From the NCBI GenBank assembly GCA_041644975.1, contig JBAZQX010000008.1, positions 334 to 64,333 on the forward strand: a DNA stretch of 64,000 nucleotides, given 5' to 3'. Positions 60,833 to 64,000 of this stretch are shown piece after piece. Numbering within the stretch: position 1 is the first letter of the stretch; every line of letters starts with the position of its first letter. The notes under the pieces are model-generated. The model saw nothing but the letters and a program-made list of their open reading frames with translations, was not told the origin of the DNA and did no database searches. The position numbers and the translations under genes were made by a program. The DNA comes from Candidatus Doudnabacteria bacterium (lineage in GTDB: Bacteria; Patescibacteriota; JAQUNI01).

Positions 60833-62200
60833 ATGCCGCACGGAACTTACGAGAGAGAGAGAGAGAGAGAGAGAGAGAGCTTCTCCCCGGTCTTCTCTTT
60901 CTCCAATCTTTTAAAGTCTTATTATAAATGCCGCAAAAACAAGCGCAAAACCCAAAGTGCCGCTATTTTTGAAATTAATTTTGAAAAAGAATTGCTGAAA
61001 TTAGAAAAGGAACTTACCGCCAAAACCTACCAGCCCGGCCCACACACCTGCTTTGTCATCACCGACCCCAAGCCAAGAGAAGTTTGGGCCGCTCCCTTTC
61101 GCGACCGCGTTGTGCACCATCTGCTCGTTTCTTTCCTTGAACCAATTTTTGAACCAAAGTTTATTTTCCATTCCTACGCTTGCCGCAAAGACAAAGGCGG
61201 ACACAAAGCCATAAAATACTTGCAAAAATCAATCCGCCAGCATCAAGCCCCCAACCAGTCGCTTTTTTACCTGCAAACCGATATCTACAGCTTTTTTATC
61301 AGTATTGATAAAAAAATTCTTTTCAGCCAAATCAGCCGCCACTGCCAAAATCCAGAAATCCTATGGCTCGCCCAAGAAATTATTTTTCAAAATCAAACTG
61401 AAAACTTTATTATCCACGGCGATAAAAATTTATTCCAAAAAATCCTGCCTCATAAATCGCTTTTTTACGCTCCAAAAGGCAAAGGTCTGCCTATTGGCAA
61501 TTTAACCAGCCAATTTTTTGCTAACGTCTATTTAAACGAGCTAGACCAATTTGCCAAACATCGGCTTAAATGCCGCTATTATTTCCGCTATATGGACGAC
61601 ATTGTCATCCTACATCAAAATCTTGACCAGCTTTTGTTCTGGCGAGAACAGATAGACGAATTTCTGCAAGACAATTTAGCTTTAAAACTGCATCCCAAAA
61701 AACAAATTATCCAGCCCGTTAAAAACGGCATCAATTTTTTGGGCTACATTACTAAACCCGAATATTCATTAAGCCGCCAGCGGGTGGTCGCGAGCTTAAA
61801 ACGCAAACTGCATTATTTTAACAAAATTCTTAATTCTCAAACTCAATATCAGCCCGAAAAACCAAATCCTCAAACCGCCTTGCCTCTCATTTTTCCCAAA
61901 GAAATTCCCCCGTTTGCTTTTCTGCAAAAGGTCCAAGCGACCATCAACTCCTATTACGGTCACTTTCAGCACTGCCATTCTTTAAAATTAAGAAAGAGTC
62001 TTTATTATCGCTATTTCAAAGAGCTAAAAAATTACTTAGAGCCAAAGGATAAAACCTTTGGCAGTTTCATTATCAGAAAATCTTACTTAAAGATGGCGAA
62101 AGGCGAATCGCGATTTGCTATATGCGCTAGGCGATCCGCCATTTGCCAACGCCGAGGAATTTTGGGCGGAAAACGGCACGAAATCGATAGCTATTGTTGA
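60833..62200 (+). CDS. diversity-generating retroelement (DGR) reverse transcriptase
   Basis: N-terminal LLKSYYKCRKNKRK, PREVWAAPFRDRVVHHLL, SYACRKDKGGHKA, IGNLTSQ (the DGR-type I/LGxxxSQ in place of QGxxxSP) and YMDD; a cognate TR/VR pair lies adjacent. Confidence 0.85.
   Translation: MPHGTYERERERERESFSPVFSFSNLLKSYYKCRKNKRKTQSAAIFEINFEKELLKLEKELTAKTYQPGPHTCFVITDPKPREVWAAPFRDRVVHHLLVSFLEPIFEPKFIFHSYACRKDKGGHKAIKYLQKSIRQHQAPNQSLFYLQTDIYSFFISIDKKILFSQISRHCQNPEILWLAQEIIFQNQTENFIIHGDKNLFQKILPHKSLFYAPKGKGLPIGNLTSQFFANVYLNELDQFAKHRLKCRYYFRYMDDIVILHQNLDQLLFWREQIDEFLQDNLALKLHPKKQIIQPVKNGINFLGYITKPEYSLSRQRVVASLKRKLHYFNKILNSQTQYQPEKPNPQTALPLIFPKEIPPFAFLQKVQATINSYYGHFQHCHSLKLRKSLYYRYFKELKNYLEPKDKTFGSFIIRKSYLKMAKGESRFAICARRSAICQRRGILGGKRHEIDSYC
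60851..60879 (+). repeat. (GA)14 dinucleotide microsatellite inside the 5' end of the RT ORF
   Basis: gagagagagagagagagagagagagagag read directly; encodes ERERERERE. Confidence 0.9.
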
Positions 62201-62288
62201 CATTGTTGTTATTGAAGTTGGAACAGGCGTTATTGCCAGCTATCCGCGCATTGTTGTTGTTGTTCTGCTCGGAGAGCCACTCCCAAAG
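62156..62288 (-). other. DGR template repeat (TR); adenine-bearing sense strand is the minus strand
   Basis: About 130 bp homologous to 63101-63234. All 16 mismatches have T on the plus strand (A on the minus strand) in this copy and C/A/G in the other copy. The minus strand is AAC/AAT-rich. Confidence 0.8.
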
Positions 62289-62374
62289 CTTTTGCCCCTT
62301 TGCTTTTCTAAAACCGCAAGCTATCTTTTATGCAAAGTAAGCTGTTTTTCAAATATCCTCCTTTGCTCAATGTC

Positions 62375-62437
62375 TGTCTTGCTGAATTTATTTCAGCATC
62401 TCCAAGGATTAGATCCTGAAACAAGTTCAGGAAGACA
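62375..62437. repeat. Family C hairpin pair (tgtcttgctgaatttatttcagcatc + gatcctgaaacaagttcaggaagaca) between TR and avd
   Basis: The same two-hairpin module recurs at 62978-63045. Confidence 0.6.
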
Positions 62438-62573
62438 TACCAATTCAGGATGGCAAACATGTGAGTCATCTAAACCTAAAAATGGCAAAGGAGGGAAAAG
62501 GGCTAAATTCCCCTTACTGCTCTCTTCTCAAACCCATAGGCTTGAAAACTCTGGCAGGAACAGAAAAACAAAA

Positions 62574-62963
62574 TTATTGCTTTGCCCATTTCTGCCAACC
62601 GCCAATCTGGCGGCCAATATCTTCAATTTGTTTGTTAATAATTTCCAGCTTTCCCGAGCTGATAATTTTTAAATCAAAAGCCAAACGAGTATGAATTCTT
62701 AAGGTTTCCAATCGGTTGTCCAATTTTTGCAAAAGTTCAAACTTTTTATCCGCGCTGTTTGCCAATACAATCAAGTCCAATAACTCCGCGCTAATTACTT
62801 TTAATTTTTCGCCCAAGGTATATTTATACTCTTTTTGAAAATTGGTTGTGGTTTTGTAAATTTCCAAAGTCAAAAGGTAAGCTGATTGAAAAATTGCAAT
62901 ATGATGATATTGAGCCATTTTATTTAAACCTAGGACTTCCGCGTTTGACTCCAGATTTGTCAT
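62574..62963 (-). CDS. avd: DGR accessory variability determinant (Avd)-like four-helix-bundle protein
   Basis: 129 aa; the pattern LETLRIHTRLAFDLKIIS...IEDIGRQIGGWQK parallels the Bordetella phage Avd C-terminus (LAMLRFWLRFLAG...IAEVGRILGSWI); lies between TR and VR. Confidence 0.65.
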   Translation of the reverse strand: MTNLESNAEVLGLNKMAQYHHIAIFQSAYLLTLEIYKTTTNFQKEYKYTLGEKLKVISAELLDLIVLANSADKKFELLQKLDNRLETLRIHTRLAFDLKIISSGKLEIINKQIEDIGRQIGGWQKWAKQ

Positions 62964-62977
62964 TCCAGCCTTTCAAA

Positions 62978-63045
62978 TGTCTTGCTGAATTCATTTCAGC
63001 ATCTTCATTTTTTTGAGGAGATCCTGAACTAAATTCAGGATGACA
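62978..63045. repeat. Family C hairpin pair located 60-130 nt 3' of the VR (in coding sense)
   Basis: tgtcttgctgaattcatttcagcatc and gatcctgaactaaattcaggatgaca. Confidence 0.6.
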
Positions 63046-63100
63046 GAATAAGAATGAACAAATGATTCAAATCATAAAATAATCAAATCAAACATAAGAG

Positions 63101-63234
63101 GGAATTATGGGCGGAAAACGGCACGAAATCGATAGCTACCGTAGACATAGTCGATATCGAAGTTGGAACAGGCGTAATGGCCAGCTACCCGCGCATGGCT
63201 GTAGATGAGCTGCTCGGAGAGCCACTCCCAAAGG
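63101..63234 (-). other. DGR variable repeat (VR) at the 3' end of the target gene
   Basis: Covers the last 42 codons up to the stop at 63105-63107; differs from the TR only at TR-adenine positions. Confidence 0.8.
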
Positions 63235-64000
63235 GGGCTATTAGACAAATCCATATATTCATCGTTCGGGGCGGCGTTAGCGCCACGACCGGCATTGCCG
63301 CCGTAATTGCCAATAGTTTTACTAGACGAAGCTCCTGAAGAATGATAAGCGCTATCGCCGGCAGTACCATCAGCATCGCCGCTAGTAGCGCCGCAAAATC
63401 CAAAAAAATCATTACTGGTTGGCAATCTTGTTCCTTTCCAATTTTTTAGAATCTCTGGCGTGATTGGACCGCCAACACCTGTTATGGCCTCGCTTGGCGT
63501 GGTGTATCCTCCTTGACCAGGTAAATCCTTTTGGCCGTCATAACAATCTGCTTGACACAAAGCGCAATCTCCGTTGTCAAAAGTAGTATCGGCGGCGCAG
63601 GCGGCATCAATGCCACTATAGTTGCCAACAGTCCCACTGGGAAAACTGCCGGAGCAGGTATATGCGGCAATATAAGAATTATCTCGTTTGGTTGCACAAA
63701 AATCTCCATTCCATGAGCCAGCAGTGCCGGCTGTTGTTTTAACACACACTCCATCTTCAGGATCTATAGCATCACCGTCGCCATTGCCGTCTTCAAACCA
63801 ATACCAACCGTTGGCGTTTTGGGCATCGCAGGTTTCTTTCGTGATTGTGGGTGTGCCCGTCCACTCTGTGCCTGGATAACCTGAATAGGCGCCGGTTTGC
63901 GAAACCCCAAAGCTCGTGCCCTGCTTGACCGTGCTGGTGGATAAACTGGCGGCGTTGTAAGTGCCAGTATAAGCGGCTGTGGTTAAAACCTTGGCCGCGC
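63105..64000 (-). CDS. DGR target protein, 3' portion (the gene continues beyond the window end); GC-rich, Gly/Thr/Ser-rich with a C-terminal lectin/FGE-like variable region
   Basis: The reading frame is open from the window edge to the stop at 63105. The C-terminus ...SPLWEWLSEQ..YRFRAVFRP is encoded by the VR. The ORF-track start at 63749 is a GTG artefact. Confidence 0.75.
   Translation of the reverse strand, partial: AAKVLTTAAYTGTYNAASLSTSTVKQGTSFGVSQTGAYSGYPGTEWTGTPTITKETCDAQNANGWYWFEDGNGDGDAIDPEDGVCVKTTAGTAGSWNGDFCATKRDNSYIAAYTCSGSFPSGTVGNYSGIDAACAADTTFDNGDCALCQADCYDGQKDLPGQGGYTTPSEAITGVGGPITPEILKNWKGTRLPTSNDFFGFCGATSGDADGTAGDSAYHSSGASSSKTIGNYGGNAGRGANAAPNDEYMDLSNSPLWEWLSEQLIYSHARVAGHYACSNFDIDYVYGSYRFRAVFRP

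Follow-up and report, generated by a model that had tools for sequence, protein, structure and literature searches.

A chromosomal diversity-generating retroelement in a Candidatus Doudnabacteria bacterium with a putative repeat-length switch in its reverse transcriptase gene

How diversity-generating retroelements (DGRs) are turned on and off is a long-standing open question, to which a repeat-length switch in the reverse transcriptase (RT) gene would be a simple and directly testable answer. The question is raised by one end of a 64,000-nucleotide stretch of DNA from Candidatus Doudnabacteria, a bacterium of the candidate phyla radiation (CPR) (assembly GCA_041644975.1, contig JBAZQX010000008.1, positions 334 to 64,333; this whole stretch is called the window below). 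An earlier note, made from the sequence alone, had described positions 60833-64000 as a complete DGR consisting of an RT, a template repeat (TR), the accessory protein Avd and a target gene ending in a variable repeat (VR). The RT, TR, Avd and VR all stood up to analysis; the target gene is not whole in the window, being cut by its edge. The RT gene further contains a tract of GA dinucleotides close to its start codon. Taken as a whole, the locus is very probably best explained as a DGR with a repeat-gated RT.

The repeat pair carries the identification as a DGR. A repeat search placed two direct copies of 133 nt at 62156-62288 (TR, minus strand) and 63101-63233 (VR, minus strand), spaced 945 nt apart. 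Base-by-base comparison gave 17 mismatches over the 133 nt, one more than the 16 counted in the earlier note, which had also let the second copy run on to 63234. Its central claim of near-identical copies with an adenine-specific mutagenic signature was borne out: at all 17 mismatches the plus-strand base of the 62-kb copy is T, corresponding to a TR adenine on the minus strand, while none of the 93 non-A positions differs. Adenines make up 40 of the 133 TR positions, and the hypergeometric probability of finding 17 out of 17 mismatches on them is 7.2e-11. Because no non-A position separates TR and VR, the last homing event must have been recent relative to the background mutation rate. A scan of both strands that tolerated A-to-N changes found no further VR-like copy in the window, which rules out a second VR or extra targets there.

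The TR is also composed as a DGR template would be. Read in the frame of the VR, its adenines occupy codon positions one, two and three 17, 19 and 4 times, and it contains 14 AAY codons (AAC or AAT), 13 of which are altered in the VR, so that the description of the 62-kb copy as an AAY-rich template holds. In the target frame on the minus strand the TR reads LWEWLSEQ-NNNNN-ARIAG-NN-ACSNF-NNNN-V-NN-SYRFRAVFRP-K, and its 14 AAY codons allow about 10^16 protein variants. As stated earlier, the VR covers the last 42 codons of a minus-strand open reading frame (ORF), together with the stop codon and 4 nt past it, where TR/VR homology stops. The 17th mismatch (T at 62162, A at 63107) converts the TR codon AAA to the target stop TAA. 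Since the stop is AAA in the TR, A-to-N homing could delete it and add 11 residues (xFPLMFDLIIL) to the target; the TRs of two related loci (L007 and L009) likewise lack the stop present in their VRs. The last ~38 nt shared by TR and VR (AGCTATCGATTTCGTGCCGTTTTCCGCCCA[A/T]AATTCC) are unmutated except for this one A/T at the stop codon and form a possible initiation-of-mutagenic-homing (IMH) segment. The TRs of four loci (L007-L010, from Patescibacteria, Falkowbacteria, Peribacter and Saccharibacteria) are homologous to that of the window, encoding EWLSEQ NNNNN ARIAG NN ACSNF NNNN V NN .. RFRAVFRP.

The RT is encoded on the plus strand by an ORF of 455 aa at 60833-62200, and the hallmarks of a DGR RT that had been noticed in it, the motifs SYACRKDKGGHKA, IGNLTSQ and YMDD, are present. 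The Pfam RVT_1 model matches with 59 bits against a cutoff of 29.6. The closest solved relative is the RT of a Bordetella phage (bRT, PDB 8ub7, E = 1.7e-48), in which PIGSLTSQLFANVY aligns with the segment PIGNLTSQFFANVY of the window RT, and PIGSLTSQ with PIGNLTSQ. Other RTs of the PDB follow with E = 1.8e-13 (group II) and 2.3e-11 (retron-type). Further, the RT lies below every cutoff of the NCBIfam group II, retron and Drt3a/4/5 models, scoring 122 bits against 300 for group II and 46 against 235 for retrons. The outcome that the earlier note had named as fatal to its reading, a group II intron or retron RT, is thus contradicted by both comparisons. In an alignment of C-termini the RT homologues stop near residue 420-430 (about position 62100), and the last ~30 codons of the window RT look like incidental read-through over a stem-loop beside the TR and the first 45 nt of the TR itself, by which the RT ORF overlaps it.

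Between TR and VR lies a 129-aa ORF on the minus strand (62574-62963), earlier described as Avd-like. It passes two curated cutoffs, that of Pfam PF22296 (bAvd) with 70.6 bits against 40 and that of NCBIfam NF033474 (DivGenRetAVD) with 82.6 bits against 80. The minus strand thus carries target, avd and TR, and the plus strand an RT gene that converges on the TR, giving the order target-avd-TR-(RT). The same RT-facing-TR layout is found in the closest relatives, which are mostly CPR bacteria, whereas more distant ones show the canonical order VR...TR-RT on one strand. Thousands of RT homologues with 50-80% identity come from CPR metagenome-assembled genomes (MAGs) and from groundwater or aquatic metagenomes; 80 genome loci and 80 metagenome loci around RT relatives were retrieved for comparison. 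The neighbours of the DGR are cellular genes (glycosyltransferases, ROK, ATP-grasp).

Adenine-only differences between TR and VR, an RT closest to bRT, an Avd above two cutoffs and a VR at the 3' end of its target support the DGR reading, which is further backed by relatives that share homologous TRs and the RT-facing-TR layout and by target homologues that vary at the AAY positions. That this is a chromosomal DGR of a CPR bacterium appears next to certain. In its operation, target, avd and TR would be transcribed on the minus strand and the RT from its own converging plus-strand transcript; as the RT lies on the opposite strand and converges on the TR, the TR needs transcription separate from the RT. 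The RT with Avd would copy TR RNA to cDNA, misincorporating opposite template adenines, and this cDNA would replace the last 42 codons of a 554-aa target and randomise the 14 AAY codons.

Does the element still work? Two of its relatives differ between assemblies in just the manner expected. Over 5.6 kb the loci L163 (ENA) and L164 (Logan) have an identity of 99.66%, with all substitutions inside the VR (5860-5929) at TR-adenine positions. Similarly, four assemblies of a Moranbacteria element (L167, L170, L171 and L172) share one identical TR and carry four different VRs, again changed at TR-adenine positions. Read from assembled genomes, these cases are direct evidence that the sister DGRs are active. 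For the window DGR we infer that it too may be active at present; as its own genome is represented by one contig, this is drawn from its intact genes and from TR and VR agreeing at every non-A position.

If the machinery is intact, what governs it? At its 5' end the RT gene starts with ATG at 60833, continues into (GA)14 at 60851-60878 (plus strand), which is followed by one more G at 60879, and reaches the FSFSNLL motif from 60893. The tract and the next G encode ERERERERE and are in frame, so the window assembly holds an allele that would be ON. It is the sole dinucleotide repeat of at least six units in 64 kb, and no in-frame start (ATG, GTG or TTG) lies between it and the FSFSNLL motif in the window. 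The earlier note did not mention this tract.

The repeat recurs among relatives. RERERE stands at the matching position in many homologues of the RT alignment, and at the DNA level the tracts at this site are pure (GA)n of 5-27 units, except for a (CA)14 in one Saccharibacteria locus; no GA tract was found in more distant RT loci. In 1.2 Mb of the retrieved related loci, 19 of the 25 dinucleotide repeats of at least eight units are situated directly 5' of the RT N-terminal motif. Among 120 RT cluster representatives, 29 have an in-frame (RE) run of at least three, and 14 lack the conserved N-terminus. All five truncated RTs that were examined (P0004, P0015, P0016, P0018 and P0021) have an upstream GA tract out of frame with the ATG and an intact RT frame, with no alternative start between tract and motif. 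Most telling is the 90% cluster P0043, in which the RT bodies are identical and the N-termini differ: among its loci, at least 99.4% identical, tracts of 11 and 14 units keep the RT in frame and those of 12, 13 and 25 units do not, and in one more assembly a scaffold gap falls at the tract. A second relative element has 9, 17 or 18 units. The out-of-frame alleles retain ~400 intact RT codons, and in several relatives a wrong-frame stop codon follows directly after the tract (GAGAGTAAA). A conserved RE-rich peptide was considered as the reason for the tract and is unlikely, the tracts being all pure GA at the DNA level, with one CA (which encodes HT), and their lengths not limited to multiples of three units. 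The (CA)14 of one relative also argues against any role of the tract that is specific to its sequence or peptide.

Slipped-strand phase variation of RT translation is the simplest reading of these observations; assembly error, a neutral repeat or frame-independent translation would fit less well. A unit gained or lost by slipped-strand mispairing would shift the RT frame, with one frame ON and two OFF, and RT synthesis, hence hypermutation, would be switched stochastically and reversibly. On balance we regard it as probable that the tract of the window is a phase-variation switch of the DGR RT. With slightly less assurance, we favour the wider claim that the RT gene in roughly a third of this clade of CPR DGR RTs is a contingency locus, in which (GA)n or occasionally (CA)n gates translation.

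Several observations weigh against a DGR with a repeat-gated RT. Several of the close relatives, L091 (81% identity) among them, have no tract, so that it is not essential; many members of the clade do without it. Short-read assemblies can mis-size repeats, and in an NCBI MAG (L167) a scaffold gap of 100 N (2902-3000) falls exactly at the tract, flanked by duplicated copies of the GA-tract region, with the RT annotated as 'partial'; the repeat thus disturbs assembly and annotation. The window population is represented by a single contig, and variation in VR and in tract length was seen in the relatives only. In L167, L170, L171 and L172, and in both the L163 and L164 copies, the VRs have diversified even though the RT is out of frame, which fits reversible switching but would fit frame-independent translation of the RT as well. 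As for the DGR itself, no stable GC-rich hairpin of the BPP-1 kind was found within ~100 nt after the VR, here or in seven relatives, and sequence, profile and structure comparisons gave no fold for the variable domain.

Some of these points would suit an alternative in which the DGR is real and (GA)n regulates nothing, being low-complexity coding sequence that mutates readily or a repeat prone to misassembly; alleles out of frame would then be dead copies or artefacts of assembly. One relative (L093) does simply translate a degenerate K/E/R-rich stretch at this place. However, tracts of 18-29 nt are well within read length and yet differ between assemblies of the near-identical loci; the out-of-frame alleles keep their RT codons and VRs still diversify; and different lineages have the repeat at one and the same position, in one case as CA. 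Further, random lengths would give in-frame and truncated RTs at about 1:2, against the 29 and 14 cluster representatives observed. A tract free of regulation accordingly seems rather unlikely, and repeat gating of the RT is preferred.

The element could instead be a recently silenced or fossil DGR, its parts complete and without further diversification in this lineage. A single contig carries these exact proteins, and the VR variation seen comes from assemblies of relatives. Against this, both the RT and the Avd gene retain intact, in-frame ORFs, the 0/93 non-A differences place the last homing recently relative to background mutation, and closely related elements are demonstrably changing; silencing is improbable. 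Finally, ordinary diverged paralogous segments beside a group II intron or retron RT, with no DGR at all, for which the generic RVT_1 match and the NCBI automatic name 'reverse transcriptase/maturase family protein' speak and nothing more, are already refuted by the adenine-only mismatches (P = 7e-11), by family scores far below their cutoffs with bRT ahead by 35 orders of magnitude, and by an Avd gene lying between the copies.

A repeat-gated DGR, if true, would have consequences beyond this locus. Populations would always hold a minority of diversifying cells and a majority that keeps a fixed variant of the surface protein, which would explain how tiny symbiotic bacteria curb the cost of constant hypermutation and can still re-tune an attachment protein. 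With a mutational switch governing a targeted mutator, a mechanism regulating DGRs would be described in these organisms for the first time, and Patescibacteria would have their first reported case of phase variation. Neither simple repeats nor phase variation turned up for DGRs or Patescibacteria in the literature covered, which did not include Paul et al. 2017; the texts of Wu et al. 2018 (PMC5758913) and Roux et al. 2021 (PMC8144416) say nothing of phase variation, frameshifting or a dinucleotide repeat in RT genes. An RT that is out of frame is cut short or marked 'partial' by gene callers (P0043, P0257, P0261), so that such DGRs may be counted as defective in surveys.

What, then, is being diversified? 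The window holds the 3' part of the target gene, 297 codons and the stop (63105-64000, minus strand), in a frame open to the window edge. In the 11.4 kb compared (52575-64000), the ENA contig ERZ27249422 k141_31134 (191,576 bp) departs from the window at a single base, at ~59701, and it supplies the complete target of 554 aa, whose start lies beyond the window (L001 235-1899). The protein opens with an N-terminal hydrophobic segment and SWA-G, continues with two repeated modules and a middle region rich in Cys, and ends in the variable C-terminus; judged by eye, its N-terminus may be a signal peptide or membrane anchor, and the protein secreted or membrane-anchored. The C-terminal pattern ...EWLSEQ xxxxx AR[IV]AG xx ACS x F xxxx V xxxx RFRAVFRP is shared by more than 100 target homologues, and among the 61 listed the variable positions coincide exactly with the AAY codons of the TR.

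The variable domain resembles nothing in the collections searched. Pfam has no match for it in the target or in 40 family members, and neither has NCBIfam; phmmer with the single protein and a profile search found no sequence match in the PDB. AlphaFold2 models from alignments of 40 and 77 sequences reached a pLDDT (predicted local distance difference test score) of 54 and 47, both with the variable domain below 50 and too uncertain for use, and Foldseek against the PDB returned nothing below E = 3 for this domain. A comparison by hhalign with DUF1566-type C-termini, which belong to proteins sharing the N-terminal modules, gave a probability of 0.3%. The motifs RLPT, WEW and RFRxV are reminiscent of FGE/C-type-lectin variable domains, a resemblance from which no fold is assigned. 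The earlier note had the target hypervary in a C-terminal ligand-binding region: the VR is indeed C-terminal, and 'ligand-binding' is a supposition only, as no fold or family can be assigned to the domain. The target family, with its more than 100 relatives ending in RFRAVFRP and with neither a Pfam model nor a recognisable fold, is an uncharacterised scaffold for massive variation.

The flanks of the two repeats differ. Directly 3' of the TR on its own strand, within the C-terminal read-through of the RT, RNA folding gives a stem-loop at 62094-62150 (minus strand) of -26.2 kcal/mol (z = -2.1). At the equivalent place three loci (L008, L088 and L165) have stronger, non-homologous hairpins with z of -6 to -10. 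The stem-loop is a candidate for the end of the TR transcript, for a bidirectional terminator of the convergent RT and TR transcripts, or for a part of the RNA bound by RT and Avd. A conserved RNA structure 3' of the TR was sought and rejected: what the alignment shows is mainly antisense RT coding sequence, and the loci have nothing in common beyond a hairpin, not homologous, at an equivalent position. An Rfam scan of 60400-64000 gave nothing at the gathering threshold and only chance-level matches (E about 1). Elsewhere in the window, the LOOT RNA (Rfam RF03000) has a full-length match at 36823-36947 (minus strand), scoring 96.8 bits where the gathering threshold is 46.4.

Directly 3' of the VR stand ATTT[GA] repeats in tandem, recurring about every 8 nt (GTTTGATTTGATTATTTTATGATTTGAATCATTTG, 63059-63093, minus strand), that are missing after the TR. 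In 18 related loci their mean number of copies per 70 nt is 2.7 after the VR, 0.06 after the TR and 0.27 in the background, an enrichment that is strand-specific (Wilcoxon P = 1.4e-4). Such repeats follow the VRs of L076, L028, L033 and L065-L080 too. They are found in this clade and after the VRs of many canonical DGRs of other phyla, sometimes upstream of a classical GC hairpin, so that the idea of a clade-specific element was rejected; they appear instead to be a general feature of the VR flank. As the ends of TR and VR are nearly identical here, the repeats are a candidate for the mark that would distinguish the VR as recipient site from the TR. In L165, two VRs (2676-2801 and 6023-6146) accompany one TR, and the VR copies share ~60 nt of downstream ATTTG-repeat flank.

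The hairpin nearest to the VR, ~55 nt away, is a locus-specific palindromic unit. Such units of ~65 nt, TGTC[AT]T[CG]CTGAA...TTCAG...GACA, fill each intergenic gap of the locus and of an adjacent 711-aa gene, with copies at 58035-58312, 60507-60580, 62373-62438 and 62973-63047, and also beyond the window, upstream of the target (L001 130-205). Of the 11 matches to CTGAA-N3-8-TTCAG in 64 kb, 10 lie within 58066-63024. Since the loci of relatives are without them, the units were rejected as a conserved DGR element and are treated as a genome-specific repeat. The adjacent gene encodes a putative surface protein with a weak CarboxypepD_reg match and GYAWSENxGWI repeats, and a similar gene stands beside the RT in L163 and L175. 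The single base by which the window differs from the ENA contig, one G missing at ~59701 (GGGATGGCTTC vs GGGATGCTTC), splits this gene into ORFs at 58350-59681 and 59681-60517 (minus strand).

The prototype for comparison is the DGR of Bordetella phage BPP-1 (mtd-avd-TR-brt). Common to both are the adenine-specific transfer from TR to VR, the AAY codons, the VR at the 3' end of the target, and Avd. The RTs share the I/LGxxxSQ and YMDD motifs, in keeping with the best PDB match being 8ub7. The BPP-1 TR, at about 134 nt, is close to the 133 nt found here. The differences are equally clear. The BPP-1 element is phage-borne, whereas the present one is chromosomal and cellular. The RT of the latter lies on the opposite strand and converges on the TR, so that its 3' end is antisense to the region beyond the TR 3' end, which in BPP-1 is the 'spacer'. 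The BPP-1 RT has 328 aa, and that of the window 455 aa with an insertion and a C-terminal domain. Here ATTTG repeats take the place of the GC hairpin after the VR, and the 5' coding region of the RT contains (GA)14; the target, to which no fold can be assigned, has no relationship to Mtd. A GC-rich hairpin or cruciform downstream of the VR has been reported for 34% of DGRs (Wu et al. 2018, PMC5758913).

A closer comparison is with the DGRs of CPR bacteria, which carry a group of their own, described as the 'CPR set' (Wu et al. 2018, PMC5758913) and as 'DGR clade 2', restricted to Patescibacteria (Roux et al. 2021, PMC8144416). The window element resembles them in its host group, in being cell-encoded, in its Avd, in having components on two strands and in a target without known domain; considered simply as a DGR, it adds one example to a kind whose abundance in CPR bacteria is already known. 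The architecture B3, TR-(avd)-RT, prevails in 90% of the CPR set, in contrast to target-avd-TR-(RT) here (Wu et al. 2018, PMC5758913). The same study notes that TR and RT may occupy different strands and that CPR DGR layouts are unusual, so that the RT-facing-TR layout is in itself not new.

For the tract, the known systems are the simple sequence repeat contingency loci, such as the CT repeats of Helicobacter pylori oipA (PMC10564699) and the (AG)12 of a Mycoplasma mycoides type III methyltransferase gene (PMC3498834). As in these, the dinucleotide tract stands in the 5' part of the coding region, after the start codon and ahead of the functional domain, and one length in three is in frame. 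The number of units varies there among near-identical strains and here among near-identical relatives, and a wrong-frame stop often follows directly after the tract. The hosts differ, being uncultured CPR bacteria here, and so does the gated gene, which is neither a surface antigen nor a methyltransferase but the RT of a targeted hypermutation system; because it is this gene that would be gated, one mutational switch would control another mutator.

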